Below are positions 1-15,829 of a stretch of DNA of 52,285 nucleotides, in pieces. The notes beneath the pieces are model-generated. The model searched no databases, was not told the DNA's origin, and worked only from the letters and a program-made list of their open reading frames with translations. The stretch's first letter is position 1. Each line of letters starts with the position of its first letter. Source of the DNA: Verrucomicrobiota bacterium. GTDB taxonomy: Bacteria; Verrucomicrobiota; Verrucomicrobiia; Limisphaerales; Palsa-1400. A program made the translations under genes and the position numbers. The DNA lies in the NCBI GenBank assembly GCA_049510745.1, contig JBEKYR010000039.1:1-52285 (forward strand), read 5' to 3'.

Positions 1-2
1 CG

Positions 3-113
3 GCCTCTCGCCCTTCACGAAAAAGCCTGCGGAACAGGGCGGCCAGCGGGAGTAGTCTTCAGAGGGCACCGCGTCCGGCCCCCTGTGGAAGCAGGCTGGT
101 GAGGGCGAGAGGC
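3..113. repeat. Long nested imperfect hairpin
   Basis: 3-18 GCCTCTCGCCCTTCAC pairs with 99-113 GTGAGGGCGAGAGGC (1 bulge); 24-30 AGCCTGC with 91-97 GCAGGCT; 34-44 ACAGGGCGGCC with 77-86 GGCCCCCTGT (1 bulge). Confidence 0.85.
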
Positions 114-335
114 TGAGAACGCGGGCAAAAAAAGGGATTTGAAAACATGACCAAATGGGGCGCGGGGTCGCGGTGGCTTGTCGCTCAGGGGAAAGACTCG
201 CTGTGGAGCGTTCGCCCGGTTGAGAAGGTCCAGACGCGCAGAGCGAGCGGAGCAAGACCGAGCATCGTAACCGGAGCAACCGGGCGAGGAAGCGCAGCGG
301 AGAGGTTTTCCACTGAGGGACAAGCTGGAATTGGG

Positions 336-423
336 CGTGGCCTGAGTGCGGTGGTTTTCGCGGAGCACAGCCTCGGACGAAGGAGAAGCGTAGCGGAGCA
401 AAAGCCGCCGCTCTCAGGCCGCG
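336..423. repeat. 26-bp imperfect inverted repeat enclosing GCGNAGC mini-hairpins
   Basis: 336-361 CGTGGCCTGAGTGCGGTGGTTTTCGC vs 398-423 GCAAAAGCCGCCGCTCTCAGGCCGCG; 21/26 Watson-Crick plus 3 G-T pairs. Confidence 0.85.
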
Positions 424-502
424 GGGGAATCAGCCTGTTTGGCAGTGAAAGCGAGGCAGTATCAAGCGAAGTGAATTGCGAGAATTCGTCAGACCGTTGG
501 GT

Positions 503-3232
503 TTAGTGCCACTGGCCGGTGAGTGTGAAGGCTGCCCAAAAAAAAGGATTTGAGAAATCCTTTGAATGTAGCAGGGACAACTGCGCCTCCCGCCACGCTT
601 GGGCTCGCGGCTCGCCAGTTTGCCAACGCCCTATGAATTCGGTTATCAATTGGCTTGTCGCTTTGTCGCTAATCTTCCAATGGCTCGCCAATACCGTCTG
701 TGCTCCGGCGATGCGAAAAGCGCGTCGTAACGACATCATGCCCTCGCCGGTCTTTACCTCGCCCGTACCACTGTCACAGGCGCTCAAGATCACCAATTCG
801 GTCCCATGCAGGTTCAGCAATGACGCCTCTAATCCCGTGAGAAGGCCATTTTCGGCCGCGGCGTTTGAGATTTGCAGCGCATGATTCGCGCCTGCCAGTG
901 CAATGCCACAACGCAGCATCGGATTTTCCCAATCGTGTCCCAACGGGGTGATGTTCCCACCAACGGCAGAATCCATGCTCGTCGATGGCATCAAGCTGCT
1001 TCGCAATTGGACCATTCGTTTGAAGACCTCATCTGAAAGAAAAAACCCATGTGTAGCCAAGTGCAGCACAGTCGGCGCACTCACCGCCTTTAAGTCCGCC
1101 TCACGCGCCCTCGCGCCAAGCAGCAAGACACATCTGTCTCCGAGTAGTTTTGCCACACTGCGCGCCTCGTCTTCCGCACCAGGCAATGGCTCGAACTTGA
1201 GATCGCGATCCTCAGGGTTTAATAACCGCCCCACTGGTGCTGCACCTGCCGCTGGCGGACCATCTGGTTTCGCATCGCTGGCTTTCCGTCCTGGAGTGCT
1301 GTCGGAACCAAGGAGCTTTATCTCTCCGTTGCCAGCTTTCGCCAAATCCAAATCAAAGTCTGGATTGCCGATAACCACCGGCGCGCTGGTCGCCACTTTT
1401 GCAGGGCCTTGGGCCAGACGCGTGATCTCCCGTCCACTGCCAACATAACTGACGGTCTTATCTTCGATCAAAAATCGGCCCTCATACGAGAGCATCTCGA
1501 ATGGCAGCCGGCTCAATTGGCCATCGGGGCAGATGATGAGGTGTGAGACATTGACGAGGTGCCTGGCCAATGGAGCATAGACCAGATGCTCAACCCGCTG
1601 TAACGCCGACGGCAAATTTCGCGCGGCGAATTGCCCAGCAGACATCCTTTTGCAAACGGTCTCAACGGCTACATTGATCGGCGTGGCTTCACCCAAATTC
1701 ACTCGCTCGACGATAATGTTTGTGGAATCTTTCCCCGCCGGGAACGTGAGATAAGCGGCATAGGATTGCTGCTCCCATCGGTTTGTCGTGGTAGCCAGAT
1801 CGAAGTTGTGATATTGGACGAAATCCAGCAGTGCGGATTGCGGTGGAAGATTCCGTGCGATGTCTGTCAGTGTTAGGTTTCGTTCATGAACCGTTGTGGC
1901 CACCAATTCAGCCCGTTCTGCCAACGCGGTTTCAAGTTGATTCAACTCATCTTGCAGCGCGCGACGCTTGATTTCGCGCTGTGGTAATGAGAGACTGCTT
2001 TGCTTCAGGCGATCCAACTGTATCGTTGCCGTACGGTATTGAATGAGCAGTTCCTTGGTTGAGGTACGCGGATCGGCATCCAACGCAGCTTGAGCGGCGC
2101 GTACTTCTTCAAGAAAAGCCTTGTTTAGCGCCAATTCCTCGGCTCCAGCACGACAAGTGCCGACCGAGGACCCGGCTGGCGCTTCGGCGCAGACTGAGTG
2201 AAAGATTTCCGCCGATTGGAACGAGACCTGGATGGAATGGAGCGCCGTGGAATCAGGTAATGCGACGATTTGCCCAACAAAATAATGACGTTGCCTTTTG
2301 AAAACTTCGACGAAATTGGAAATGCTTTGTTCAAAATTTCGCTGCTTCCCAAGTACGGTCGCCAACTCAGTCAATTCTTCGATTACATCTGGATTTTCGG
2401 GACCTGAGTTCCTTTCATCAATCGAGATTGCTCGGCGACACGCGGACGCCGCTTCCGCGTAGTTTCCGATGTCGCAATGGATTTGGCCAGAAAGAAATAT
2501 ATTCTCGGCGACCATCGGATGCTCTGGCCCCAGGTGCTTTTCTCCAATAGCAATAGCCTGCTCGCAGAGAGCAAGCGCCTCGTTGTAGTCACCAAGCTCC
2601 CTGCGAATCGCAGCCAACGTATGAAGACTGTCGGTGAGGTCCGGGTGATCTTCGCCCAATACTTTCTTTCTGATTTCCAAGGCTCGCTGGCACAGCGGCA
2701 ATGCGTGTGCGCAGTCTCCCTTTAGGCGGTAAACATCCGCCATGTTGTCCAACGTTGTTGCAACGTCAAAATGTTCCTTGCCGACGAGCTTTTCCGTGAT
2801 CACCAGACTCCGCTGGTAAAGTGGTAGCGCCTGGTCGTATTCTCCCATTTCTTGATATTCGTATGCGAGATCGTCCAAAACGTCCCCGACTTCCATGTTC
2901 TGAGGTCCCAGCAATTCTTCTCGAATCGCCAAACAACGTTGGTCAAGCGATGCAGCTTGGGCGTAGTCACCCATATCATCGTAAAGGCCAGCCAGATCGC
3001 TGAGCAGGTTGGCAACATTTGTGTCGCTACGGCCGAATGATTTCTCTGCAACCTCCAAACGTTGTTTTACGGCACGAAGTGAGTTCGTCAATTCTGCGTA
3101 AGTGTTGGTGTTGGAATCAAACGTGGTCCTGTCCGTCGGGGGCGTGGCGCGAGCGACCTCCAAGCAGATCAGGCTGACCAGGGCAGCCATGCCTGCGAAG
3201 CAGAATTCTCGACAGCGTTGCCAACAGCGCAT
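503..3232 (-). CDS. Secreted TPR-repeat + CHAT (caspase-like, clan CD) protease
   Basis: N-terminal hydrophobic signal; ~42-aa TPRs (LGxxHPDVAxxLxxLA...YxQALPLYQRSL); CHAT motifs ICPDGQLSRLPFE, LHLATHGFF (His), LVILSACDSG (Cys), PFFWAAF. Confidence 0.93.
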   Translation of the reverse strand: MRCWQRCREFCFAGMAALVSLICLEVARATPPTDRTTFDSNTNTYAELTNSLRAVKQRLEVAEKSFGRSDTNVANLLSDLAGLYDDMGDYAQAASLDQRCLAIREELLGPQNMEVGDVLDDLAYEYQEMGEYDQALPLYQRSLVITEKLVGKEHFDVATTLDNMADVYRLKGDCAHALPLCQRALEIRKKVLGEDHPDLTDSLHTLAAIRRELGDYNEALALCEQAIAIGEKHLGPEHPMVAENIFLSGQIHCDIGNYAEAASACRRAISIDERNSGPENPDVIEELTELATVLGKQRNFEQSISNFVEVFKRQRHYFVGQIVALPDSTALHSIQVSFQSAEIFHSVCAEAPAGSSVGTCRAGAEELALNKAFLEEVRAAQAALDADPRTSTKELLIQYRTATIQLDRLKQSSLSLPQREIKRRALQDELNQLETALAERAELVATTVHERNLTLTDIARNLPPQSALLDFVQYHNFDLATTTNRWEQQSYAAYLTFPAGKDSTNIIVERVNLGEATPINVAVETVCKRMSAGQFAARNLPSALQRVEHLVYAPLARHLVNVSHLIICPDGQLSRLPFEMLSYEGRFLIEDKTVSYVGSGREITRLAQGPAKVATSAPVVIGNPDFDLDLAKAGNGEIKLLGSDSTPGRKASDAKPDGPPAAGAAPVGRLLNPEDRDLKFEPLPGAEDEARSVAKLLGDRCVLLLGARAREADLKAVSAPTVLHLATHGFFLSDEVFKRMVQLRSSLMPSTSMDSAVGGNITPLGHDWENPMLRCGIALAGANHALQISNAAAENGLLTGLEASLLNLHGTELVILSACDSGTGEVKTGEGMMSLRRAFRIAGAQTVLASHWKISDKATSQLITEFIGRWQTGEPRAQAWREAQLSLLHSKDFSNPFFWAAFTLTGQWH

Positions 3233-3299
3233 TTGGTGAATTCTGCCACACTCCGTGCAATCCGTCGAGCGTTACGATGGCAGGAGGCGAATTTGGAAA

Positions 3300-3725
3300 T
3301 CAGCGCGGCGGAATACCGCCGTAACCTGAACAGAGCCATTCGACTTTTGTGGGCGGTGCCGGGGTGCCTCCTCGCCGCCAAGCTCGATGTCCATATCCAT
3401 CGCCAACCCATCCGCCATCCGAGATCTTCGTCGGTTGCGCAGAACTGGTCGCAGCGGTCGTTCCATTTACCCAATAACCCACCCACCAAGTTGTCCGACC
3501 GTCGTGATTGCCCCAAGCAGCTTGAGGACTCTTAGGCTCAGGCATGATATATGTCCAATCGGCCTGTTTAAGTTCGACCGCCGTTCTGATCGTTGATTTG
3601 TCGCAAGAAAAGTCTGCGTGTCGCAACTGAGGCGAAGGAGAAGTTGGCGCGCCAACCGCAGGCGCGCACATTGCCGCGCCAAACATCAACATTAGGAGAG
3701 CAAATACATTTTTTTGTGAATTCAT
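3300..3725 (-). CDS. Small exported hypothetical protein
   Basis: Signal-peptide-like N-terminus; Trp/Gly-rich body (MPEPKSPQAAWGNHDGRTTWWVGYW); co-oriented with neighbours. Confidence 0.7.
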   Translation of the reverse strand: MNSQKNVFALLMLMFGAAMCAPAVGAPTSPSPQLRHADFSCDKSTIRTAVELKQADWTYIMPEPKSPQAAWGNHDGRTTWWVGYWVNGTTAATSSAQPTKISDGGWVGDGYGHRAWRRGGTPAPPTKVEWLCSGYGGIPPR

Positions 3726-3775
3726 AGTTTTACGAGTGAATTTGACCTGTCACATGCGGTCCATTTACTGGGGCA

Positions 3776-4048
3776 TCACGGTCTGCAAACTTTGCAAGGC
3801 CTGTGGCCAGCCTTGATCGCTTCTTCACGCGTTTTGAAAGTTTGCAGATTGGCAGATGAAATGCGCCGCGCCCACTTGCAGTCGGGTCTGTGGAACGGCT
3901 CACGATTGATCGAGGCAACATACGCAGCCTCGCTTTGCGCCGGTTTATCCGACACTTGTTCCGCCGTTTTCTCCGTGCAGCCGACAAAACTGGTCACCAA
4001 CAGCAAGGCAACAAGAGTGAATTTGATCAGGGTTGTCATTGTTCGCAT
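3776..4048 (-). CDS. Lipoprotein with Ada-type metal-binding domain
   Basis: Lipobox-like FVGC; YVAS...FHRPDCKWA...F.TREEA.KAG.RPCKVC.P pattern of the Ada Zn-binding domain. Confidence 0.8.
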   Translation of the reverse strand: MRTMTTLIKFTLVALLLVTSFVGCTEKTAEQVSDKPAQSEAAYVASINREPFHRPDCKWARRISSANLQTFKTREEAIKAGHRPCKVCRP

Positions 4049-4080
4049 TCGTTAGTGGTGATTCAGGCGCCTGGAATTTG

Positions 4081-4440
4081 TTACCAACGGTACGATGTTT
4101 TCGGCACACGAATCGTGCCGAATCCACGATAGCTAAGGTTGTCCGTAACCGTGTTGTTCGGCGGCGTGCGGTGGTATGGGGCCACGTACGTCCCGTTAGA
4201 ACGAAGGTAGCCCTTAAGGCTGACGGATGGATAGGCGGCGTATGGGTTGCGATACACGTAATCGCGGCTCGAACTGGAATACCCAGAATAGCTGCCGCGG
4301 AGCGAGCCGCTGTCGGAGCGGTAGTACGGCGCGATGTAGGTGCCATTGCTGCGGTAGTAGCCACTCACCGACCCAGCTTGGGCGGCCAATGTGGTACAGA
4401 AGATCGCTGCGGCGAGAACGAGTTTCATTAGACTTTTCAT
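4081..4440 (-). CDS. Small exported basic protein with two V.GY.RSNGTY.APY.R repeats
   Basis: Signal peptide MKLVLAAAIFCTTLAAQA; repeats VSGYYRSNGTYIAPYYRS and LKGYLRSNGTYVAPYHRT; start placed at ATG 4440. Confidence 0.8.
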   Translation of the reverse strand: MKSLMKLVLAAAIFCTTLAAQAGSVSGYYRSNGTYIAPYYRSDSGSLRGSYSGYSSSSRDYVYRNPYAAYPSVSLKGYLRSNGTYVAPYHRTPPNNTVTDNLSYRGFGTIRVPKTSYRW

Positions 4441-4533
4441 AATTTTTATTCTTTTGTGTTTCAGGCGGTTCGTTGGTGCCGGCGGCTTTCGCCGCTCGGT
4501 TTCTGTTTGTTCACCCAAACAGCCTTCACTCGC

Positions 4534-4564
4534 TTCATCGCAAATCGTGAAAGATTTCTTACAA
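4534..4564 (-). promoter_or_regulatory. Putative ECF-sigma promoter copy 1 (TGTAAG-N17-CGATGAA)
   Basis: Minus strand TTGTAAGAAatctttcacgaTTTGCGATGAA; same boxes and spacing as 5211-5241. Confidence 0.7.
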
Positions 4565-4596
4565 TTATTCGTTCTCCGCCTTCAGTCCTATATCCC

Positions 4597-4625
4597 TTGC
4601 CAATGTTTTGCTGTTGTGGCATGCT
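4597..4625 (+). promoter_or_regulatory. Putative sigma70 promoter for the ECF gene (TTGCCA-N17-CATGCT)
   Basis: Spacing counted directly; predicted start site falls near in-frame GTG 4632 (leaderless). Confidence 0.4.
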
Positions 4626-4631
4626 GCGGCT

Positions 4632-5210
4632 GTGCAAAAATTGCCCGACCTCAAAGCACTCCAGTCTGGCGATATGGCGGCGTGGGACACGGCTTTCTTG
4701 TGGCTCTGGCCCGCAGCTTACGGCGCGGCGCAAATCCAATTAGAACCATATCTCCCTGCGGACGTGGAGGATGTAGCCATCGAAGCGTTGGAGGAACTGG
4801 TCGAAAAAGTGCAGGAAGTCAATTCGGTTGAGGAACTCAAACCGCTGGCTGCAAGCATTGCTCATCACCGGGCGGTGAGCCGACTCCGCCGGCATTTTGC
4901 CGCCAAGCGTGGGTGTGGTCAAAACGAAAGTCTCGAAGCCAAAACGCAGGAGGCTGGAGACCCGCCAGAAATGGGGGTATGGGATTCCCCGCTGGCGATG
5001 TTGGAGGAGAAGGAGTTGGCCGACGCACTACGCAGGGTTTTGGCTGAAATCAAACCGCCTCAGGGAGCCATCGTGGCCGATTTCTTTCTTCACGGATTGA
5101 ACTACGGTGAAATTGCGACGAAGCACCAAGTGGCCCTTGGCACCGTTGGCGTTTATTTGAAACGTGGACTGGGCAGCATGCGCCGCATCTGGGAGAGGAA
5201 CGAAAAATAG
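4632..5210 (+). CDS. ECF RNA polymerase sigma factor
   Basis: GDMAAW, DVEDVA, IAHHRAVSRLRR (region 2); FFLHGLNYGEIA...LGTVGVYLKRG (region 4). Start uncertain (4608 or 4632). Confidence 0.92.
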   Translation: MQKLPDLKALQSGDMAAWDTAFLWLWPAAYGAAQIQLEPYLPADVEDVAIEALEELVEKVQEVNSVEELKPLAASIAHHRAVSRLRRHFAAKRGCGQNESLEAKTQEAGDPPEMGVWDSPLAMLEEKELADALRRVLAEIKPPQGAIVADFFLHGLNYGEIATKHQVALGTVGVYLKRGLGSMRRIWERNEK

Positions 5211-5241
5211 TTGTAAGAAGCGAACCGGATTTTGCGATGAA
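5211..5241 (+). promoter_or_regulatory. Putative ECF-sigma promoter copy 2, directly upstream of the anti-sigma gene
   Basis: TTGTAAGAAgcgaaccggatTTTGCGATGAA, followed 4 nt later by in-frame ATG 5246. Confidence 0.7.
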
Positions 5242-5245
5242 CTCA

Positions 5246-5953
5246 ATGAATGACCAAAACTTTTTCGATCTGGCGATGAAAGCCATCGCCCGCCAGGCCA
5301 GTGATGCTGAACGCGCCGAATTGGATGCCTTGCTCACGGGCCACCCAGAGTTGAAGGCTGAGTTTGATCGGTTGCAAGTGGACGTTCGCACCGCCAAGGA
5401 AACTCTGGCACTCGTGAATGCGACCAAGGCAACGGAGCCCGAACTTCCAGCTTACGTGCGAGGTCGGTTGCAAACCAAAGTCCGACAAGCACTTGGGCGC
5501 CCCAAAGTGTCGGACGAACGAGAGCGGGAGCTAAAAATGATTTGGAACTGGCGGTGGATTTTGGGGTTGGCGACTTGCGCAGCGGCGGTTGTCTTGCTCT
5601 TGTATCCCGTACGCACACGCCCCTCTGGAGCGATGATTCAGGTCGCCATGCTGGACACTGTGGGGACAGTTCGAGGTTCTGAAACCAGTGAGGCCGAAAT
5701 TCTCAAACAGGAGTGGAAAAGTTCAAGCATCCAAAGTTTTGATAGCCCTGCCCTGTTGGGAAACTGGGAAACGAATTGGCCGAAGGGCAGCAAAGTGATC
5801 GCGAAGGTGGTTTACGACCGCGCCGCCGGAGAAGTGCGCGTGTCGCTGCATGGCACCGTTAAACTACCGCGACGAACTTTTGTTGTCGAGCGCGATTTAC
5901 CCACGACGCTCCAAGAAGCAAATGCGTTCATTCAGGAACACACGAAGCACTGA
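5246..5953 (+). CDS. Membrane-anchored anti-sigma factor
   Basis: Follows ECF; N-terminal ASD-like helices (ASDAERAELDALL...PELKAEF), single TM (WRWILGLATCAAAVVLLLY), extracytoplasmic C-terminal domain. Start 5237 or 5246. Confidence 0.8.
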   Translation: MNDQNFFDLAMKAIARQASDAERAELDALLTGHPELKAEFDRLQVDVRTAKETLALVNATKATEPELPAYVRGRLQTKVRQALGRPKVSDERERELKMIWNWRWILGLATCAAAVVLLLYPVRTRPSGAMIQVAMLDTVGTVRGSETSEAEILKQEWKSSSIQSFDSPALLGNWETNWPKGSKVIAKVVYDRAAGEVRVSLHGTVKLPRRTFVVERDLPTTLQEANAFIQEHTKH

Positions 5954-5954
5954 T

Positions 5955-6083
5955 ATGCCCGTTATTAGACAACTGACCAGATTGCTTCGCCTCGCTGTTC
6001 GCTTGTTGCTGGCTTGTGCCGCGCTTGTACGAGGACAGGACACGAATTTGGAGGCCGACGCGACCTGCGTCGAAATAGATTGA
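5955..6083 (+). pseudogene. 42-codon stub: signal peptide plus a few residues
   Basis: MPVIRQLTRLLRLAVRLLLACAALVRG-QDTNLEADATCVEID*; starts 1 nt after the anti-sigma stop. Confidence 0.45.
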
Positions 6084-6085
6084 TT

Positions 6086-7231
6086 ATGGAAACTACGAAT
6101 GACCTGAAGATATTCATCATCGGTGCTGGCTGCTCGGCTGACTATGGCTACCCACTTTCCAAGGACTTCCTTGAATGCCTGAAGAGTTACGGCAAAAAGG
6201 TTGCGGGGAGACCCAACTGTGATCGGTTGCGCCAAATCGTGACCGAAACCGCCGATTTAATGGAAAGCTCCGGCACCCCGACCATTGATAGGTTGGTCCG
6301 TTGGATCGACGAGCAACCGAGTAAACTTGGACCCCGCTCGATGTTTTATGACCACCCGGACAATAAAAATTATAAGGACAAAATAGCTTGGGCGGAGAAA
6401 CAAGTTTTGGACGCCAAGAGGGTGACTATGGCTGATTTCCTGGAGCGCGAAGAAGATGTCCGTGAGACGGCCCTGTGCGGCTATCGTGACTTCCTCCACG
6501 ATGTCTTCGATGAGAGGCGGGACTTGGGTTCGTTATCGACGACGAATAGCCGAGTTCTTAGCTTTAATTATGATCGCCTATTCGAGATAGCCTTTGGCAG
6601 TTACTTTAAGCTCCAACGAGATTGCTACGTGAATTCCTACGGAAAGGAACTGCTGAACTCTGGTTGGAACGGCGCCGGCGGACGCGGGGAGGAAATCGCT
6701 CCGGATCGCTTCTGCTTCTTGAAGTTGCACGGATCGGCCGGGGCCTGGATTATGGGATCCCATGGAGAGCCACGTTACTTTTCCAGCGCGGCGCTGCGCG
6801 GGCCTGAGCATTGTATCAATGACGATTTCTTCTTGCCCCCAGGACGAAAACTTTCGCCGATTCCACGAGAGAACCCTGAGCCCTTCATCGTGTTTCCGCA
6901 CGAAAAGGAGGGTGTGCAGCAATCTGGCCATACACCAATTTGCAAGGAATACCTCGACGCAGTCTGGCATAAGGCGGAAGAGTTGGTTGGCAACGCACGA
7001 CAAATCTGGGTCATAGGCTACTCATTTGATCCCAATGATCGAATGTCCTTGATGGGCCTCCTTCGTAGAAAGGCACAGGAGTGCGAGATCGTTGTTCAGA
7101 ATCCGAGCGCAGAGGAAATCTGCAATGAACTGAGGCTCCAATATCCCGATCTCGCGGGGTCGCTCGTGCCTTTTCCCAAGCGGTTTGGACATATCGCGGG
7201 GTCGCCCATTAGTGCGAATGTCACGAAATAA
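6086..7231 (+). CDS. SIR2-like (SIR2_2/AbiH-like) domain protein, candidate anti-phage NADase
   Basis: IFIIGAGCS..YGYP, SFNYD, LKLHGS and VIGYSF...D motifs in canonical order. Confidence 0.85.
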   Translation: METTNDLKIFIIGAGCSADYGYPLSKDFLECLKSYGKKVAGRPNCDRLRQIVTETADLMESSGTPTIDRLVRWIDEQPSKLGPRSMFYDHPDNKNYKDKIAWAEKQVLDAKRVTMADFLEREEDVRETALCGYRDFLHDVFDERRDLGSLSTTNSRVLSFNYDRLFEIAFGSYFKLQRDCYVNSYGKELLNSGWNGAGGRGEEIAPDRFCFLKLHGSAGAWIMGSHGEPRYFSSAALRGPEHCINDDFFLPPGRKLSPIPRENPEPFIVFPHEKEGVQQSGHTPICKEYLDAVWHKAEELVGNARQIWVIGYSFDPNDRMSLMGLLRRKAQECEIVVQNPSAEEICNELRLQYPDLAGSLVPFPKRFGHIAGSPISANVTK

Positions 7232-7291
7232 AAAAACTAACCGGGCGAGCGTAGTGGTGGCGGAGTTCGGTCGCGGCGGGTACACGAGACG

Positions 7292-7573
7292 TTGCAACTG
7301 GAAATAATCGCCGTCCTGGAATCGCTGAACCAATTGCGAGAGAGTCCTGATTACGAGCTTTGCCGAATCAGCGAGCAAAAACCCGGCGTGTTGAATGAAC
7401 TTGCGGCGGAGAGAAAGAAGTTGCTGAAAATCGAAAGCGCCGAATTGGAAGCGCAAGCCAGCCGCCTTGCCCAGGAAATCAACGAGTTGAGCGGCGAGGG
7501 GTCATCACGAATCGGTTGGCGTGGTTTATATCAGCAGTGTTCCACTTTGGCGAGGCTTTTGGGCGTTGAGTGA
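7292..7573 (+). pseudogene. Coiled-coil ORF, probably a 5'-truncated gene fragment
   Basis: Protein-like helical sequence, but TTG start without RBS and frame open further upstream without a start. Confidence 0.35.
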
Positions 7574-7731
7574 GGTCCCGAATTCAGCCAATGGGTCGTT
7601 GCAGAAAGTGGAGGCCAAGACTGGCAAGAATGAGAATCGTAACGAGAGAAACGTGTGATGGTGGAAGCCTGAATCCGTGACGGTATTTCTTATATTTGAT
7701 TTTAAGGCCGGAGTGATGGACATTCCACATT

Positions 7732-8301
7732 ATGGATCAAGATTATGTTGTGCTGGACCCTCATGGTGAGCCTTGTGGATCATTGAACATGGCTATTTGT
7801 GCGGACTACACCGCTCTGGACAAGGTCATGCCGTTCAGTCGGCTGGAAGAGGCCGCCAGATTTTCGAAACTTACAGACCCTGCCTCCTTCGGTTTCAATT
7901 TTTTTGAGAAGCAGTTGCCGAGGCGTGACATTTACCCGGTGGCCGCATTACTCGATTTGGAGATTGATTACAAGAAGCGGAGGCGTGGATACGGCGCAAC
8001 GGCGCTCTGCGCATTTAGGGCGGTAGCAGCCGATCACAAGGCACGTCTGGGGTTGCTTCGAATTGGCACCACCATCGGGGACGAGGAATATGAGGCGGCC
8101 ATGCTTTGGCGCAAGGATTTTTACTCAAAACATGGCTGGGTGGCTTTCAATACTCCCCCCGTGCCTAGATTAATCCTCGTATGGATGTACCACCTTCTTC
8201 CGCCCCTGTCAGATGAGGAATGGATTGTGCGGGACCGATTGAGGGAGGCAACGCCGGAGCAGAACAAGTTTGCGGGTTTTGACCCGTCTTTGACAGTTTG
8301 A
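7732..8301 (+). CDS. GNAT-like acetyltransferase
   Basis: LEIDYKKRRRGYGATAL (motif A R.xG.G) and FYSKHGW (motif B). Confidence 0.6.
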   Translation: MDQDYVVLDPHGEPCGSLNMAICADYTALDKVMPFSRLEEAARFSKLTDPASFGFNFFEKQLPRRDIYPVAALLDLEIDYKKRRRGYGATALCAFRAVAADHKARLGLLRIGTTIGDEEYEAAMLWRKDFYSKHGWVAFNTPPVPRLILVWMYHLLPPLSDEEWIVRDRLREATPEQNKFAGFDPSLTV

Positions 8302-8399
8302 AAATCTTGCCCCTTAGGTTTCAACGGGGCGGAACGAGCACAGAAGCAGAACAGAAGCCAGATTGACGCGGAATGGAGGCGGGCAAGTTTGGTCACGGT

Positions 8400-8894
8400 T
8401 TACAGGTGAAATAGTTTTCGGACGAATTTTTGCATCCCGGCTGTTACATGGCCGACAAGAGCGAAAGAATATAAAATGCGCTTTTCAGGGTGGTGTTCGA
8501 GGAAAGCCTTTAGGTCGTCCTTGGTTCCGACGAGTGGGAAGGCCGTCATTGCCCAAAGATCAGCGTGCCATGCTTCACCGCATTTTCGACGCAGCACTCG
8601 TCTGGTCTTGTAGGTGGCTTCACCCAAAATTTCATTTTCATACGGGCGATTGATGAACCAAGGCATACGGAGCGGACGGGGATTTTTGAATTGGGGCGTG
8701 AAATGGCTGATCTCACGCAGGAACGTAAAAATCACGTCATGTTGCGGCTGATCGAGAGGAATGACGGCGACGGGTGGTTCGGAATGCTGGCAGCCACAAA
8801 ACAACAGCAGCGTGTCCTTGGGAGTTTCGATTGTCACCCCGACCTCTGCGGCCAGGGCCACCAGTTTCTTTTGGATTTCGGCGTTCATGTTCAA
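8400..8894 (-). CDS. ImmA/IrrE-like metallopeptidase-fold protein with degenerate active site
   Basis: FTFLREISHF where HExxH is expected; downstream EAWHADLWA; coupled to the XRE repressor. Confidence 0.55.
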   Translation of the reverse strand: MNMNAEIQKKLVALAAEVGVTIETPKDTLLLFCGCQHSEPPVAVIPLDQPQHDVIFTFLREISHFTPQFKNPRPLRMPWFINRPYENEILGEATYKTRRVLRRKCGEAWHADLWAMTAFPLVGTKDDLKAFLEHHPEKRILYSFALVGHVTAGMQKFVRKLFHL

Positions 8895-9268
8895 TTTGGT
8901 TGATGTTTTTTGGCGAATCCATCCGCCACGCTCAAGATGATCGCTATTTCATCATCTGTAAGCGAGGCCAAGGAACGCATCAAAACACGTCCCTGCTCCT
9001 TTTTAAGCACCTTGTTTACCACTGCATCGTGGCGTTCGGCGGCATCAAAAAGCTGGCCGCGCGGCTGGATGTCCAAGACATCTTCGAGCCGGACAAGGAT
9101 TGTGTCCGCTGGAACCCCACGAACCCCGTGCAGAAGCCTGGAAAGGTAAGCCGGTGAAATGTCAGCCTTGAAAGCGACCTCCGCCTTGGTCAGCCCTGAG
9201 CCGCGAATGGCTTGGGCCAGCAGGCGGATGAACTCCGGCGGGGCGGATGTTGGCTGTTGCTTTAGCAT
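8891..9268 (-). CDS. XRE-family HTH repressor (ImmR/CI-like)
   Basis: GLTKAEVAFKADISPAYLSRLLHG...P HTH. Confidence 0.9.
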   Translation of the reverse strand: MLKQQPTSAPPEFIRLLAQAIRGSGLTKAEVAFKADISPAYLSRLLHGVRGVPADTILVRLEDVLDIQPRGQLFDAAERHDAVVNKVLKKEQGRVLMRSLASLTDDEIAIILSVADGFAKKHQPN

Positions 9269-9411
9269 CGGCTTGAATTTATCACATTTGCACTGCGAGT
9301 CAAAGAAAAAATGATAAACAGATGTAACATGTTGATAATCAACGATAAAGTTTTGCAGTTTGTATTTGCCCTCTCAGGTCAATTATGAGATTTTAAACGA
9401 GAAGGTATACG

Positions 9412-9621
9412 ATGAAGAACTCGGTTAAAGAATTTCGCCAACGCAAGGGCGTGTCAAAATCACACCTTGCACGGAAGATCGACGTGTGTCCCTCTTACGT
9501 CACAAAACTTGAGAATAATGATATTCAACCGAGCGGCGAGGTGATGTTCCGTTTGGCAAATTATTTCAAGTGCCGGATTGAAGATGTGTTTCAACCCGAA
9601 ATGGCAGGCGGCAGGAAATGA
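9412..9621 (+). CDS. Small XRE/Cro-like HTH regulator
   Basis: MKNSVKEFRQRKGVSKSHLA...YVTKLENNDIQPS...LANYF...IEDVF; divergent from the repressor; GAAGG RBS. Confidence 0.9.
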   Translation: MKNSVKEFRQRKGVSKSHLARKIDVCPSYVTKLENNDIQPSGEVMFRLANYFKCRIEDVFQPEMAGGRK

Positions 9622-9773
9622 TTTTTGAATGAAAAAATTGCCTATGTGTCAATTCATGTTCAAGTGGCGAAGCGAGCGCAACGCACTCGCCAATGCAATT
9701 TCCCCGTTGTGCCTCCGTCGGCAACAGGGAAAGAACAGAACAAGGCGGAAATAAATGGAAAGGTTAAATAAGT

Positions 9774-10040
9774 ATGCAAATTAAAGTGCTGGTCATTGAC
9801 AAGGTGTCGGAAACTTTCGACACAAAGAAAGGGTCCAAGACGCTCCATCTGCTGGTGTGCCAGGATCAATCCCGTCCGCCCCTTCGGAATTCGTTCGATT
9901 ACGAAATGACGGCGGACGAGCTGACCAAACACGGCGCGTCGCTGGTGGACAAGACCGTCGAACTGAACATCCGGGACATGAGCCAGAATTTCTCTGGGCG
10001 CATTCGGATGTCGGGAGCCATCATGCGGGTCGTTGCGTAA
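9774..10040 (+). CDS. Small beta-rich protein, candidate ssDNA-binding protein (gene V-like)
   Basis: 88 aa, alternating hydrophobic strands, basic hairpin FDTKKGSK; TAATG-coupled to Rep. Function inferred from size and context. Confidence 0.55.
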   Translation: MQIKVLVIDKVSETFDTKKGSKTLHLLVCQDQSRPPLRNSFDYEMTADELTKHGASLVDKTVELNIRDMSQNFSGRIRMSGAIMRVVA

Positions 10041-10540
10041 TGGAAACGGCGCTGACATACACGCTGCAACGCGTTCACTGGCAGTTCTTTGGCACCCTGT
10101 CATTTAAGAGTGCCAGGCTGCCGGAACGCGTGCGGCTGGCGATGTTTTTTGCCCTCGTCCGCTGCCTGTGCCGCTGGCACAAAGTGCTGTTTCGCAAGTG
10201 CGTCTGGGCTTTGCGCCAGGAGCCGGGGGAAATCGGCGGACGACTTCACTTTCATTTCCTGATCGCGGGTTTGCCGCGGTATGCCGTCCAGGTCGCCACG
10301 TGTATGAGTATCAAGGCGCAGTGGGAAGTACTCGGTGGCGGCATGGCTCGCGTCAGGGAATACGATTCGAGAAAACAAGGTCTCGCATACACGTTAAAAT
10401 GTCTCAACGTCACGAATGGGGGAGCGAATCTCTATGAAGTGGGGAAGTTTTCGCATTCGACGGATGAGGTGATGTTGGCGAATGCAATCTGGGACCGGGC
10501 TAATACTGCACGGGTTTCGGATACCCTTGGCACTGCCTAG
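10040..10540 (+). CDS. HUH-endonuclease rolling-circle replication initiator (minimal, 166 aa)
   Basis: Motif I FGTLSF, motif II E....GRLHFHFLI, motif III AYTLK; ATG overlaps the upstream stop. Confidence 0.82.
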   Translation: METALTYTLQRVHWQFFGTLSFKSARLPERVRLAMFFALVRCLCRWHKVLFRKCVWALRQEPGEIGGRLHFHFLIAGLPRYAVQVATCMSIKAQWEVLGGGMARVREYDSRKQGLAYTLKCLNVTNGGANLYEVGKFSHSTDEVMLANAIWDRANTARVSDTLGTA

Positions 10541-10582
10541 TCGAACGCTCGGCGGCGGTGGATTCGTCAACCGATTCGGGTA

Positions 10583-10617
10583 GGGGGTGGGCGCGCGCGG
10601 AGCGCGCGCCTGCCCCC
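10583..10617. repeat. 16-bp GC-rich hairpin with GGA triloop just downstream of rep
   Basis: GGGGGTGGGCGCGCGC-GGA-GCGCGCGCCTGCCCCC; 14 Watson-Crick + 2 G-T pairs. Confidence 0.85.
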
Positions 10618-10711
10618 TGCCCGATGGCTTGAAGAGGAACTCTGTACGGGGCTTGGGCTTGGTGAGATGGTAAACCCGCCCGGCATGTTTCGGCGGGTGC
10701 AAGAGGTTGGT

Positions 10712-11065
10712 ATGACTGACGAGCTAATGAAAGCGGCGGTTGCGACTTGGGCAACGAAGGATTTGCCCGCGCGACTGGATGTGACAACGACAGCGAAGCT
10801 GCTCGGCTTCGCGGAGCATGACATTCAGGTTCTGATGTCGTCGGGGAAGTTGGTGCCGCTCGGCGATCCCGCTCCCAACGCGCCCAAATGGTTTGCGGCC
10901 GTCGAGGTCATTCGTCTTGCCACGGACCCGGATTGGTTGCACAAGGCAACCAGGGAGATTTCCAAATACTGGCGGCACAAGCGAGAGCGTCGCCAATCAG
11001 GGGATACGAGATCGCATTTAGTATGCGCTCATGGTGGGGTGGTTGTTAATCACAGCTTGCCGTGA
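10712..11065 (+). CDS. Excisionase-like winged-helix DNA-binding protein
   Basis: LDVTTTAKLLGFAEHDIQVLMSSGKLVP...KWF pattern of Xis/MerR-like HTH; GAGG RBS. Confidence 0.6.
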   Translation: MTDELMKAAVATWATKDLPARLDVTTTAKLLGFAEHDIQVLMSSGKLVPLGDPAPNAPKWFAAVEVIRLATDPDWLHKATREISKYWRHKRERRQSGDTRSHLVCAHGGVVVNHSLP

Positions 11066-11090
11066 AAATGTCAGTTGGCATACTACAATT

Positions 11091-11417
11091 ATGACGCAAT
11101 CCGAATTATCAAAGATGGACCCTGGCAGAAGGGCGGCATGGCTGGACAGCGTATCTCCCACAAGCAGTTGGTCTCTTGGGGATGACGTATTCTGCTTGCA
11201 CTGCGATGCAGTTTTCAAAGCTGAGGACGTGGCTTGCGACCATGAAGGTGACCCAACCTGCCCGGTGTGCAAGTCTAGCACGCCTCTGGATTTTCACCAT
11301 ATTCCTTGGTGGAGGGGCGACCTGGTTGGTGAGGATTTTGAAAGAGGCGGATACTGGAAAGGCACTCCGATTACGGCGGTCTCTGGTAAGCCAGGTCAAC
11401 TGCCTGCGGAGCGTTAG
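11091..11417 (+). CDS. Zn-ribbon hypothetical protein
   Basis: CLHC...CPVC. Confidence 0.65.
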   Translation: MTQSELSKMDPGRRAAWLDSVSPTSSWSLGDDVFCLHCDAVFKAEDVACDHEGDPTCPVCKSSTPLDFHHIPWWRGDLVGEDFERGGYWKGTPITAVSGKPGQLPAER

Positions 11418-11459
11418 AATAGGTTTGCTGCAAAAGGCCGACCGTTGACACCGTAGGCC

Positions 11460-11498
11460 CCGGCAGGATGTGGCCGGATTAGAATCGCCTCCTGCCGG
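11460..11498. terminator. Hairpin between convergent genes
   Basis: CCGGCAGGA...TCCTGCCGG; no U-tract. Confidence 0.35.
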
Positions 11499-11510
11499 AA
11501 CCCGGGCTAT

Positions 11511-11657
11511 TTACTTGCCTCCGGGAGGATTGTTCCCTCTTCCTCCGCCGGATGGATTGCCGGTTGTGCTCGGCCAGTTTCCACCGCTGCCTTTGCCCCC
11601 GCCCTTGCTTCCACCGCCGCCCTTACCGCCTCCATTCTTGGATTTACGTTGAATCAT
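11511..11657 (-). CDS. 48-aa Gly/Lys-rich microprotein
   Basis: AAAGGA RBS; MIQRKSKNGGGKGGGGSKGGGKGSGGNWPSTTGNPSGGGRGNNPPGGK. Confidence 0.6.
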   Translation of the reverse strand: MIQRKSKNGGGKGGGGSKGGGKGSGGNWPSTTGNPSGGGRGNNPPGGK

Positions 11658-11953
11658 AACGTTTCCTTTCTTTCTTAGCTTGGGGGTCACTTTGACTCCC
11701 TTGGGCCAATACGGGGCGGTTTGCAGAATCTTGCTTTTGCCTCCTGCCGGCGCCAGACATCCCACCGTTCAGACATTCGTCTTGACACTAAAGTTTCACC
11801 TAATTCTTCACCTGGCGAGCAATTCGGAGGCAATAACAGGGCAGTGCGTAGCGGTGAAAGAACGAACAAAAAAACGCTTGACTCCCCTATGAAAACAGCC
11901 TAGATTAAGCCTTGAAACAGAGTGTGTTAGGCTCGGAACGGTAAAGCTACCGC

Positions 11954-11978
11954 GTTCGATTTCGACCCCCGCTTCCCA
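11954..11978 (+). other. Degenerate tRNA 3'-end-like sequence, candidate attR
   Basis: GTTCGATTTCGACCCCCGCTTCCCA resembles T-loop + acceptor stem + CCA of initiator-Met-like tRNAs; sits at the composition break. Confidence 0.45.
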
Positions 11979-12026
11979 CTGTTATTGCTGGCCCGGCAAG
12001 GAGCCGCTTCCTTCCGAGTCTTCGGT

Positions 12027-12491
12027 TCAAGCGGACGGACCAAGTTTTGCCAATCGGAAAAATAAACTCCCCTTTGGCGGACTGATGATGACGCTCCTGG
12101 TCGTTCCGTCGTCCGAAACCGTGATGCTGCTGTTCGACCAATTGGTCGTGCTGAGGTCTGAATTCTGCTGCAATCCCCAGCCGGCGGAAGCCGACGGCCA
12201 GGAAATCTTCACGGTTGTCGGGTCAATCAGTTGGACGGCCAGGGACGGCGCGCCGGGAGTTTGCACGGCAGCGATCAGGCTCCAAAAACCGCTCGTGAGT
12301 GAATAGTTGCCGCCCGTCAGCGGCCCGCCGGCGTCGTGCCGGCCGATGGTGCCGCTGACGGAATAGACGCCGCTCGTGCAGGCGCCGCCGCCGCCGCCAA
12401 TCGTCCACCAGTTGATCGAGTACTGCCCCTGAACGGTGAGCGCGGACAGAGCCAGAAGGAGCAGCAGGCCCAGCTTGATCTTGGGTTTCAT
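12027..12491 (-). CDS. Secreted partner protein with C-terminal ...FFRL domain
   Basis: Signal peptide; YSINWWTIGGGGG...YSVSGTIG..DAG...GFW domain; TAATG-coupled to the upstream fibre gene. Confidence 0.85.
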   Translation of the reverse strand: MKPKIKLGLLLLLALSALTVQGQYSINWWTIGGGGGACTSGVYSVSGTIGRHDAGGPLTGGNYSLTSGFWSLIAAVQTPGAPSLAVQLIDPTTVKISWPSASAGWGLQQNSDLSTTNWSNSSITVSDDGTTRSVIISPPKGSLFFRLAKLGPSA

Positions 12492-15400
12492 TATTGGCCT
12501 CCAGTCGAGTTGGATTTGACGAGTTGTTCCAAGGCCGCCAGGCGCCGCTCGAGGTCCGCGATTTGAGTGTCCTTCTGCTTGACGGTTTCTTCGAGTTTTT
12601 TGTTCAGCCCCTGGATGGCGGCCAGGGCGACCCCGTGCAGGTCGGTGTCGTTGAGCATGGTCTCGGTGTCGTTGAGGGGGAAGAGGGCGTGGAAGTCCTG
12701 GGCCATGGGGCCGATGTGGCGTTGCGGATAGCCCTGGTAACTCCACTCGCTCAGGGCCAGGGAGGAGAGTTTCTCGAGGATTTCCTCGCCGTCCACCGGG
12801 GTGAAGTTCTCCTTGGTGTTGCGATCGCTGGTAAAGCTCCACGAGCTGTTGCCGGGCGCCCAGGAAACCGTCTGGTTCGCAGTAAGGGCGCCGCTGGTGA
12901 AGCGGACGCCGCCCACGCAGCGGAAGCTCACCTGGTTGTTGGCTGTCGAGGCAAAAGCCCCGGCCTGCGAGTCCGCCCAGACAAAAGCGCCGTTGTTGAC
13001 GGCCTGCGCCTGACTTCCGGCGGCAAAACTGCCGGCGCCAGCCGCAAGGTTGAGCGAGCCGCCGGGGATCACCGAGTTGTCGCCGGAGGCGATGTTCTGC
13101 TGGCCGCCACCGACCGCGGAGTATTGGCCGCCGGCGGTGTTGACGTAGCCGCCCGCAACGGTGGCGGCATAGTTGGTGGCGGCATCGTTCACGCCACCGC
13201 TCACGGTGCTATATTGGTTGGCCGTGCTGTTCATTTCCCCGCCGGCAATCGTGGACCCCTCCGCGCCGTCGGCGTTGTGACTTCCCCCTCCGATGACGGC
13301 ATAGGGGGCGTTGCTGCCGACCGTGTTCATGTAGCCGCCGGCGATGGTGGCGGCGTAAGTGTTGGACCTGATGGTGTTGAAACTGCCGCCCGCGATCGTA
13401 CAGTTTTGCGAGTTGGTATCGATCCGGTGGCCTGAACCGCCACCGATGGCGCCCTCGTCGGAGTTGACCATATTGGTATAGCCGATTTCTCCGCCGCCGG
13501 CAATCGTTGCGCCGTGGACGCCGGCCAGGACGCTGTTGTACTTGAAACCACCGATGACGTTGGCTGCGTTGGTGTTCGGCTCCAGCCGGAAGGCACGGCG
13601 ATTGTTCACCCAGAGTTCAAGCGGATTGTTGTCCGTCGTGCCGAGGAAGTTGGCGGGCGTCGTCGTGCCGGCATTTCCTGTGAGGCTCCAGCCACCGCCG
13701 CCCCCGCCACCCGCGGCGAGGGTGAGGGTGTTGCCATTCGTGGTGAGGGTGATATTGGCGCCGGCGGCGAGGACGATGTCATCGGTCAGGCCATTGAGGG
13801 TCTTGACGACGGCTCCGCTGGCGATGGAACCGGCGGTGATGCCAGAGAGGGCTGATCCATCACCGGCGAACGCGGACGCAAGGACCTGGCCATCGCTTGT
13901 TATTCCCATTTTTTGGCCGGCGCCGACCATCCAGAAGCCAAGGGACCCAGTTGGCCCCGGCTGAACGGCGATGTCCCACCCCGCCGCGCCGGTCGCCGCC
14001 AGACGCAAGCGGACCGCATCGTCACCATTCTGCTGCTCGAACAGGGCCTGCGGGTTGTTCCAACTGCCGGTAGAGCCCACGTGCAGCGCCGCGGCAGGGG
14101 AAGTCGTCCCGATGCCGACACCGCCGGTGGCGCGCACCAGGAATTGGTTGCTGGCCGTCGAGCCAAACGGGCCGGGGGTCGAGTCCGCCCAGACGAAGGT
14201 GCCCGCCTGCATGGCGAGGGCGTTCTGGCCGGCGGCCAGGCTGCCGCTGCCACCGACGACGTTGTTGGCGCCACCGGGGATGACGGAGTAGTTGGCGCCA
14301 GCCATGATTTGATTGAGGCCGCCGCCGCCGATGGTCGCGGCCAGCGTGTTGGAATGGATGACGTTCTGGAAGCCCCCGCCCACGGCGGAGTCCATGGAGC
14401 CAGGCTCGATGACGTTGGCATTGCCGCCGGCGATGGTTGACATCGAGGCGCCAGTCTGGACGACGTTGAGATAGCCGCCGCCGATGGCCGCGTCCTGGGC
14501 GGAGTTGCCGACATTGTTGAATTCGCCGCCGGCGATGGTGCTGTGGGCGGCGCTGCTGCCAATGACGTTGGTGCTGCCGCCGGGGATGGTGGCCTCGTTG
14601 GCGTTGGCCATGATGAGGTTGCCCGTGCCCCCGCCAATGACGGCTTGAACGGCGTTGCTTTGAATCGTGTTCCAATCGCCGCCGGCGATGAGCGAGAAAG
14701 TGGCGTTGGGACCAAGCAGGTTGCCCGCGCCGCCCCCAATCACAGACCACCAGGCATTGGTCCCGATGATATTGCCGCCGCCGCCGTGGATGGCGGCATA
14801 CCAGGCCGTGTTCGAGATCGTGTTCTGGCCGCCGCCGCTGATGGTGGAATACCAGTTATTGCTCTGGATGGTGTTGTTGACGCCCCCGGCAATCGTCGAG
14901 TTCAGGTCGCCGAACTGGACGGCGTTGTTCTGGCCGCCGCTGATGGTGGAGTAACCGGACGAGGGGCCGATGGCGTTGGCGGCGCCGCCGCCGATGGTCG
15001 CGTAGTCAGAGCCTACGCCGTTGATGTTCCCGGCCTGGCCGCCGCCGCCAATGGCCGCGCCGGCCACGCCCGGAACCGCGATGTTGCCGCTGAAACCGGC
15101 GATGACATTGGGCGCATTGACGTTGTACTCCAGGCGCAAGCCGCCGGTGTTGTTGACGCGCAATTCCAGCGGCTGGTTGTTGAGGGTGCCGAGGAAGTTA
15201 CCAGGCCCGGCATTGTTGCCCTGGAGTTGCCAGAAATCCGCGGCGTGCAGGCCGTCCACGGTATTGGCATCGCCGCCGATGTCGCCCACGATCTTGCTGC
15301 CGGCCAGCGACGCGATCCAGGCCGGGTCGGTGTAAGAACCGTTGTCATAGACGCCGTGGGTCACCGTGGCGGCATTGCCGGTGATGCTGATGTTCGCCGT

Positions 15401-15829
15401 GCCCGGGCTCATCTGCGCGGCGGGCAGCGTGCCGGAAAGATTGCTCGCCGTGTTGGCGAAGATGGCATAGGGGGCGGGGGTCAACTGCTGGCGCGGGCTG
15501 AGCGTGCTGAAAGCGCCCGGGCCGCTGGTGCGCACGGCGATCTCCAGCCAGCGCGCGTTGCCGTCGAACTGGTTGCCAAAATCCATCGTGACGACGAAGT
15601 AACCGTTGCTCACGGCCACGGCGTTCGTGGCGAACGTGGCGCCTTGTTGCGCGCCGCCGCTGGCGGCGTTCCACAGGGCGAAGGAGAAATCATAAACGCC
15701 GTTGGCGGCGTTGCCGCCGCTGGCCAGTTCGCCCTGGTAGGTGAAGGCCGTTTCCTGGCCGAAGGCGGGGAGTTGAGGCGTCAATAGCAGAACGAGCGCG
15801 AGCAGCGTCCGCGTGATTGTTGTTTTCAT
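12491..15829 (-). CDS. Secreted fibre-like protein with GGxxN repeats and C-terminal peptidase S74 intramolecular chaperone
   Basis: GAAGGAGA RBS, signal peptide; many (S/A)TIxGGxxN repeats; SDRNTKEN...HIGPMAQDF...LAAIQGL + coiled coil. Confidence 0.88.
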   Translation of the reverse strand: MKTTITRTLLALVLLLTPQLPAFGQETAFTYQGELASGGNAANGVYDFSFALWNAASGGAQQGATFATNAVAVSNGYFVVTMDFGNQFDGNARWLEIAVRTSGPGAFSTLSPRQQLTPAPYAIFANTASNLSGTLPAAQMSPGTANISITGNAATVTHGVYDNGSYTDPAWIASLAGSKIVGDIGGDANTVDGLHAADFWQLQGNNAGPGNFLGTLNNQPLELRVNNTGGLRLEYNVNAPNVIAGFSGNIAVPGVAGAAIGGGGQAGNINGVGSDYATIGGGAANAIGPSSGYSTISGGQNNAVQFGDLNSTIAGGVNNTIQSNNWYSTISGGGQNTISNTAWYAAIHGGGGNIIGTNAWWSVIGGGAGNLLGPNATFSLIAGGDWNTIQSNAVQAVIGGGTGNLIMANANEATIPGGSTNVIGSSAAHSTIAGGEFNNVGNSAQDAAIGGGYLNVVQTGASMSTIAGGNANVIEPGSMDSAVGGGFQNVIHSNTLAATIGGGGLNQIMAGANYSVIPGGANNVVGGSGSLAAGQNALAMQAGTFVWADSTPGPFGSTASNQFLVRATGGVGIGTTSPAAALHVGSTGSWNNPQALFEQQNGDDAVRLRLAATGAAGWDIAVQPGPTGSLGFWMVGAGQKMGITSDGQVLASAFAGDGSALSGITAGSIASGAVVKTLNGLTDDIVLAAGANITLTTNGNTLTLAAGGGGGGGWSLTGNAGTTTPANFLGTTDNNPLELWVNNRRAFRLEPNTNAANVIGGFKYNSVLAGVHGATIAGGGEIGYTNMVNSDEGAIGGGSGHRIDTNSQNCTIAGGSFNTIRSNTYAATIAGGYMNTVGSNAPYAVIGGGSHNADGAEGSTIAGGEMNSTANQYSTVSGGVNDAATNYAATVAGGYVNTAGGQYSAVGGGQQNIASGDNSVIPGGSLNLAAGAGSFAAGSQAQAVNNGAFVWADSQAGAFASTANNQVSFRCVGGVRFTSGALTANQTVSWAPGNSSWSFTSDRNTKENFTPVDGEEILEKLSSLALSEWSYQGYPQRHIGPMAQDFHALFPLNDTETMLNDTDLHGVALAAIQGLNKKLEETVKQKDTQIADLERRLAALEQLVKSNSTGGQ

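Follow-up and report, generated by a model that had tools for sequence, protein, structure and literature searches.

The locus described here raises the question of how a small rolling-circle replication module with neither a coat gene nor a Zot ATPase gene could be kept and spread among bacterial chromosomes. The stretch of DNA that was analysed, hereafter the window, comprises 52,285 nt of a Verrucomicrobiota bacterium (Limisphaerales, Palsa-1400; assembly GCA_049510745.1, contig JBEKYR010000039.1) and is the entire contig C39 of a 5.6-Mb genome that is 94% complete. Window DNA is also contained in peat and wetland metagenomes, and no RNA data set stands among its listed carriers. Most of an integrative element lies in the window, with a predicted HUH replication initiator (Rep), a predicted single-stranded DNA (ssDNA)-binding protein (SSB) and a putative origin as its core. 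Comparison with its relatives suggests that it belongs to a real and well-delimited family that would work like the known satellites RS1, TLC and pDolos. We give a probability of roughly 0.55 to the reading that members of this family excise, make ssDNA circles and would be packaged, as satellites, by a related helper filamentous phage. An earlier sequence-only reading had proposed a capsid-less, integrative, rolling-circle element of a verrucomicrobial host. The divergent XRE pair, the 88- and 166-aa open reading frames (ORFs) coupled by TAATG, the Rep motifs, the hairpin, the Xis-like ORF and the tRNA-like attachment (att) sequence on which it was built were all found where it had placed them, and each of those four descriptions is supported by the results below.

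The Rep gene (10040..10540, + strand) encodes what is predicted to be a minimal, helicase-less HUH initiator of 166 aa with the motifs FGTLSF, LHFHFLI and YTLK. Across 60 aligned homologues H70, H72, Y117 and E133 are invariant and Y132 and K136 nearly so, which places a second tyrosine motif, Y132-E133-x-x-K136 (YExxK), after Y117. Because Y132 is conserved in at least 90% of these homologues as well, the earlier assignment of the protein to the one-tyrosine type is not established. The match to PF23343 (REP_ORF2-G2P; E 1e-3) scores 19.9 bits and falls below the curated cut-off of 27.8, and many homologues bear a precomputed PF23343 annotation. The best fold matches of the structural model (pLDDT 77, low at residues 114-128) are HUH Rep nuclease domains at middling Z-scores, such as SIRV1 ORF119 (8.2) and MVM NS1 (7.9); a Foldseek search of the PDB gave no match at E<=0.001, PDB sequences gave none, the best PHROGs match was just E 0.02, and tblastn found nothing in INPHARED phages or in the 72,556 plasmids of PLSDB. 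A Y1 transposase (IS200/IS605) or RAYT was considered and rejected, as there is no Pfam Y1_Tnp match, the elements are bounded by tRNA att repeats beside an integrase, and the best fold matches of the Rep model are the HUH Rep nuclease domains. The element's proteins also have no MOB Pfam match. There are 122 close homologues of the Rep and 1,198 representatives at 50% clustering, so that homologous modules elsewhere number in the hundreds. Four sequences in the alignment (P0096, P0104, P0110 and P0112) are natural fusions of an SSB-like domain to the Rep, and at locus L004 a different, 153-aa PF23343-like Rep (8156-8928, - strand) is located next to another Xis-like gene and points toward the first element.

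The 88-aa ORF (9774..10040, + strand) overlaps the Rep ORF by TAATG and is homologous to the gene that precedes Rep in verrucomicrobial inoviruses. An SSB gene precedes Rep in 83 of 89 loci, 49 of them through the same TAATG overlap. Its model (pLDDT 86) is a full OB domain closest to SSB and PriB (Z 8.8-9.2 across 83-84 of the 88 residues). The leads from the ESM Atlas (PF17426 Putative_G5P, an inovirus G5P family, 0.94) and from BFVD (an RstB-like protein, E 8e-4) point to filamentous phages. The description of this protein as gene-V-like is borne out only in part, by the OB fold and the G5P lead; the top 50 PDB matches are SSB-, PriB- or RPA-type proteins, with Ff pV absent among them.

Directly 3′ of Rep lies the predicted double-strand origin (10576..10635, + strand), consisting of a covarying stem, a GC-GNA-GC mini-hairpin loop (10599-10601) and then GCTTGAAGA (10627-10635), within which a nick is predicted after 10631. 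The hairpin at 10576-10624 has a folding energy of -31 kcal/mol as DNA (z -7.5), which none of 200 shuffles equalled. Its length and sequence vary between loci. The GNA loop is found in 49 of 52 hairpins, with all four types represented (GGA 33, GCA 8, GAA 6, GTA 2), and in all 49 of these copies the innermost six stem pairs are Watson-Crick. The nick motif GATGGCTTGAAGA follows the hairpin in 64 of 65 stretches, and GCTTGAA is invariant across 20 diverse loci. Stem covariation over these 20 loci exceeds that of 500/500 shuffles and of all slid controls, in a statistic that related sequences inflate and for loci hand-picked for diversity. GCGNAGC is described as a stable DNA-specific mini-hairpin at ssDNA phage origins (PMC13037366), and the CTTG-A of the motif is similar to CTTGATA, the nick sequence of pC194-type origins (PMC10378824). 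Conservation drops within ~25 nt past the nick motif and different genes lie beyond it, as would be expected if modules swap at the nick.

A conserved non-coding block of ~200 nt, a candidate single-strand origin or packaging signal, is split in the window into a 5′ piece (7239..7281, + strand; blastn and alignment) and a 3′ piece (8299..8398, + strand; nhmmer E 1e-20, model positions 83-190), with ~1 kb between them and the central imperfect hairpin missing. The fold z-scores of this block were not significant in windows that mostly miss its hairpin, the stem being judged from the arms alone.

The left end of the element lies on another contig. The first 82 nt of the window are identical to the last 82 nt of contig C68, and we assign positions 1..440 to the left continuation of the element toward C68, which has a tRNA-Cys followed by a 370-aa tyrosine integrase, and also a DUF6573 gene and two small genes, the protein genes having been examined with Pfam. 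We infer this join rather than count it as observed because it passes through a repeat that is also present in a second element on contig C12 of this genome; it is backed by a contiguous homologous stretch in L014 and by L024/L025, in which host site and orientation are the same. The joined element is ~14.5 kb long and sits at tRNA-Cys. Its right end is a conserved att arm with the attR core (11790..11976, + strand), in which 11954-11976 repeats the 3′ end of the C68 tRNA-Cys with two mismatches (21/23 identity). Apart from the two tRNA-Cys genes, this is the sole match in the genome with at most three mismatches, and it retains the base that separates the C68 tRNA-Cys from the other one. ARAGORN found no tRNA in the window, an Rfam scan of positions 1-13000 returned nothing, and prmC, being unlinked to tRNA-Cys in relatives, does not lead by synteny to an empty site for comparison. 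The integrase and the tRNA for which the sequence upstream had to be inspected were therefore found outside the window, on C68, and profile searches of the element and of the genome detected neither Zot nor coat genes (PF05707, 0 matches; best E 0.28 for a verrucomicrobial Zot profile). The joined element also contains no ORF with a Walker A motif.

Nineteen tRNA-bearing stretches were tested, of which 13 have a clear tRNA-end repeat and 12 enclose a Rep, giving 10 distinct att-flanked elements. These measure 2.7-14.5 kb, sit at tRNA-Cys, Val, Thr, Pro or Ser and have integrases of two families. In all 10, Rep is present while genes for a pI/Zot ATPase and a coat protein are absent, and Reps 83-91% identical to that of the window occur in such elements. 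That a single Rep clade is associated with five different tRNAs and two integrases points to movement of the elements, or to exchange of modules, once morphogenesis had been lost. The smallest intact-looking element (L079, 4.3 kb) holds SSB, Rep, three unknown genes, a small gene named AlpA-like by resemblance, and the integrase gene; L011 has no SSB, L012 has a truncated integrase, and L004, L006, L012 and L018 are broken copies. A census of 127 near-full Rep loci, which is redundant and biased to close homologues, comprises 72 capsid-less loci (Xis/Int within 1.5 kb, or att-flanked), 6 with Zot (5 distinct inoviruses), 5 in primase elements, 9 without Zot within 6 kb and 35 that are too short. 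Counting all contexts, 45 of the 301 genomes examined from the order and 9 of the 11 from the host's family have Rep; among 401 genomes sampled evenly from the phylum, 7 have Rep and 24 have Zot. Both Rep and SSB show a dN/dS of 0.11 at a dS of 0.6-0.9, with intact genes in 61 of 63 distinct Reps over the first 120 codons and in 64 of 65 SSBs. Since this amounts to purifying selection, the capsid-less elements are not simple relics.

What ties the family to filamentous phages is a set of verrucomicrobial inovirus prophages. The sole IMG/VR match of the Rep belongs to an inovirus that encodes an SSB, a Rep, coat-like and pIII-like proteins and Zot; an IMG/VR scan with a verrucomicrobial Zot gave nothing. 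Counting this inovirus and four further ones of the order, five verrucomicrobial prophages (L109, L110, L111, L126 and L020, the last also as L164) have homologous SSBs and Reps of the same family at 39-52% identity, and in three of them (L020, L109 and L110) the hairpin and GCTTGAA are present as well. Their gene order is regulator-SSB-Rep-coat...Zot(-Xis-Int), in some followed by a tRNA, and Zot follows Rep at a distance of 3.0-5.5 kb. None of the coat, pIII-like and Zot genes that come after Rep in these prophages is present in the elements: profiles of the Zot and coat proteins of verrucomicrobial inoviruses matched inovirus or inovirus-remnant loci only and no capsid-less locus, and the coat profile (seven verrucomicrobial coat-like proteins) matched inovirus loci only. 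In trees that are unrooted and have long branches, capsid-less Reps form three or more lineages, and two of these adjoin inovirus Reps. The trees contain 38 and 33 non-redundant sequences, and in both the clade of the window's Rep (support 99/96 and 100) has no inovirus member; the window's Rep itself was included only in the second tree, which was quickly built. To judge from gene content and order, the capsid-less forms are an inovirus backbone minus morphogenesis.

L115 (G120:C70, 2761-7600) has an SSB-coat-pIII-Zot-Xis cluster of inovirus type in which no Rep can be detected between the SSB and coat genes, and is possibly a Rep-less partner complementary to the capsid-less elements. In L107 (17153-18386) a short orphan Zot with Xis and integrase, a decay intermediate, stands in tandem with the L003 element at tRNA-Cys. 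Further verrucomicrobial coat/Zot clusters occur in L108 (G004:C19, 1-5262) and in L110 (17011-18001). Genome G004 holds both the L108 cluster and a capsid-less Rep locus, L008, and thus a natural candidate pair of helper and satellite.

These observations suggest a simple cycle, of which the starting point is directly visible: an element between tRNA 3′-end repeats, adjoining a tyrosine integrase. Derepression, in this subtype through the XRE repressor and an ImmA-type peptidase, would allow Int and Xis to excise a circle. The motifs, the fold and the covariation suggest that Rep then nicks GCTTG^AAGA beside the GNA hairpin, after which a host polymerase and helicase would displace the plus strand and SSB would coat it. 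A helper inovirus could provide pI, coat and receptor-binding proteins, and filament length would tolerate genomes of 3-15 kb with swappable cargo. In a new cell the second strand would be made and Int would insert the element at a tRNA. Integrase-bearing inovirus satellites are likely to be the best reading of the family.

A number of points weigh against this reading. The genome, which is 94% complete, has no detectable helper (0 Zot matches); candidate helpers are present in relatives, and they are rare in the order, where 7 of the 301 genomes have Zot against the 45 with Rep. Neither an attP junction nor an excess of coverage, both of which the sequence-only reading had named as signs to seek, was seen in four peat metagenome assemblies, two of which may have yielded the DNA of the window: no attP joint is listed in them, and the depth of the element equals that of the host (28 vs 27.4; 14-16 vs 16.9), contig depth being blind to rare excision. 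Among the 59 loci whose upstream sequence is long enough, 22 have the ~200-nt block, and it is absent from the inovirus loci; a packaging signal common to elements and inoviruses has therefore not been identified. The Rep also occurs beside an XRE gene (L117, L118, L122, L123 and L124) in islands, some in tandem arrays, that encode a CHC2/Toprim primase of ~1000 aa and XerC-like integrases in pairs; there it is sometimes fused to an SSB-like domain, and the same origin motif is present in L118, L123 and L124; the module is therefore not specific to a phage lifestyle. As the Rep trees are unrooted, they do not give the direction of change, loss or gain of morphogenesis. The copy in the window has a degenerate peptidase motif, a split ~200-nt block and att mismatches, and is probably partly disabled. 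Packaging and transfer are steps that we infer.

Signs of decay of this kind would also be expected if the elements were inovirus prophages that had lost their morphogenesis genes and persisted passively, and the broken copies, the orphan Zot remnant in L107 and a report of degraded CTX-like elements that retain cargo (PMC12715192) fit that explanation. For the family it is largely refuted, and we hold it to be very doubtful, because of the low dN/dS at substantial dS, the compensatory changes in the hairpin, the near-identical Reps at five tRNAs with two integrases, and the fact that the window's clade is without any Zot-bearing member. We also think it unlikely that these are integrative mobilisable elements (IMEs) in which the HUH protein is a relaxase, the hairpin an oriT and a conjugative element acts in trans. 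IMEs with Rep-like non-canonical relaxases do exist (PMC5357655, PMC5704250), and the ImmR/ImmA-like control of the window's subtype, the DUF6573 gene on the C68 arm and an integrase with att repeats would all suit one; but neither the element nor the host genome has a coupling protein or VirB4, the conjugation ATPases, the Rep and its origin occur in inoviruses as well, and the plasmid collection contains no match.

A somewhat better, if still improbable, alternative is that the elements are self-replicating integrative cargo or defence islands with no dedicated helper, in which rolling-circle replication keeps or amplifies the circle and spread occurs by generalised transduction, vesicles or transformation. 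Such islands would account for purifying selection and tRNA hopping without a helper and for the large excess of capsid-less over Zot carriers in the order; their cargo would be the restriction-modification, PD-Lambda-1, Qat and toxin-antitoxin genes, and integrative plasmids with HUH Reps are known (PMC6668415). They would not by themselves explain why a dedicated SSB is kept in inovirus gene order together with an inovirus origin motif, or why capsid-less lineages adjoin inovirus Reps, and we therefore prefer packaging by a helper.

The satellite reading can be set against known systems. The RS1 element of Vibrio cholerae has a repressor, a Rep and an SSB without morphogenesis genes, and its initiator is of the Rep_trans type. 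It is an integrated satellite of a filamentous phage, ~3 kb in size (PMC11389934, PMC7574455), and the RstB-like match of the window's SSB is a further point of likeness. RS1 integrates through host Xer at dif (bioRxiv 2026.06.12.731946), whereas the verrucomicrobial elements have their own tyrosine integrase, tRNA targets, an HUH Rep and up to ~10 kb of variable cargo. TLC, also of V. cholerae, is integrated too and replicates as a satellite through Cri, a rolling-circle initiator of the HUH type (PMC9226527), but uses XerD/XafT at dif and is a single family in Vibrio, and the accessible portions of the TLC literature mention no SSB-Rep-origin cassette shared in order with the helper. pDolos, packaged by the Shewanella inovirus Dolos, is a rolling-circle replicon without structural genes (bioRxiv 2023.11.28.569023); it is non-integrating and has no recognisable phage proteins, unlike the elements described here, which are integrative and collinear with inovirus prophages, in some cases including Xis, the integrase and the tRNA site. 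Integrative HUH-Rep plasmids (pCRESS groups) and IMEs are likewise att-flanked, with an integrase, an HUH protein and no capsid; the verrucomicrobial elements are without SF3 helicase or coupling protein and have an inovirus-type SSB and origin. Having a tyrosine integrase and tRNA repeats where an IMEX such as RS1 or TLC relies on host Xer at dif, and a rolling-circle initiator with adjacent SSB where the Inoviridae also have a Zot ATPase and a major coat protein, they are neither IMEX nor inovirus. With their own predicted rolling-circle replicon and no morphogenesis genes, they have, at the level of sequence, the gene content of filamentous-phage satellites.

The suggestion of a possibly undescribed class was nevertheless too strong, since inoviruses of this phylum have the module as well and the capsid-less satellites RS1, TLC and pDolos are already known. 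We found no description of a verrucomicrobial capsid-less family in the literature, where supplements and paywalled papers (e.g. the tables of PMC6813254 and PMC6668415) may list members; the main text of PMC6813254 contains neither 'Verrucomicrobia' nor 'satellite', and bioRxiv 2026.09.15.751708 and PMC11630473, as far as they are accessible, treat different elements. Inovirus surveys rely on the pI/Zot marker (PMC6813254), and capsid-less relatives are therefore invisible to them. Those filamentous-phage satellites that we found published are few and come from Vibrio and Shewanella. A broader proposition, to which we would give even odds, is that large, repeatedly evolved integrase-bearing inovirus satellites, in effect natural integrating phagemids, outnumber their helpers in this major peat and soil order of Verrucomicrobia, arise when the cassette for morphogenesis is lost at the nick site and use filamentous virions to move defence cargo of variable size. 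Since candidate helpers, a defined origin and natural intermediates are all at hand, the origin of a satellite by gene loss from a temperate phage becomes directly testable. The family also provides a putative 166-aa HUH nickase with a predicted target, and perhaps a way toward genetic tools in a phylum that is hard to manipulate.

Upstream of the core, the window encodes an XRE repressor of CI/ImmR-like type (8891..9268, - strand; HTH_3 E 9e-8) and a small divergent Cro-like XRE protein (9412..9621, + strand; HTH_3 E 1e-11), with promoter-like matches on both strands at 9276-9339. Downstream of the repressor is a homologue of ImmA/IrrE-family anti-repressor peptidases (8400..8894, - strand), whose own homologues match PF06114 (E 2e-7, 3e-8) and in which HExxH has degenerated to RExxH. 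A CI/Cro-type pair was thus correctly recognised, but not as part of the element's core: the pair is seen in 17 of ~100 clustered loci, regulators differ among family members, and the pair with its peptidase is a swappable regulator. The putative Xis/Cox-like DNA-binding protein (10712..11065, + strand), for which the nearest named Atlas clusters, Phage_Cox and HTH_17 at 0.92, are leads only, belongs to a family found in 62 loci and located between Zot and integrase in inovirus loci (L111, L115).

The cargo region (503..8301) holds, according to Pfam and PHROGs, a TPR-CHAT protease (503-3232, - strand), small secreted proteins, an Ada Zn-binding protein, an ECF sigma/anti-sigma pair (4608-5953) and weak SIR2-like and GNAT-like matches. 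PADLOC gave only a weak TPR match for those cargo proteins that were submitted to it. The earlier expectation of defence cargo holds for relatives, which carry type III and II restriction-modification, PD-Lambda-1, QatC, ParD-PIN and HEPN genes; in the window it does not go beyond the weak SIR2-like match. Just outside attR, 12491-15874 (- strand) encodes a secreted protein of 1127 aa that is rich in repeats and has a Peptidase_S74 chaperone domain at its C terminus; a 154-aa gene comes next. The second element of this genome (G000), on contig C12 at ~132000-152266 (L130), has an intact upstream block, an XRE gene, a diverged SSB (hhalign 93.9%) and Rep (37% identity to that of the window), large cargo and an insertion sequence, and C12 ends within its origin hairpin. 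Dense tRNA arrays of 11, 8 and 4 genes lie on the short contigs C73, C74 and C75 of the same genome, and a tRNA-SeC on C19.

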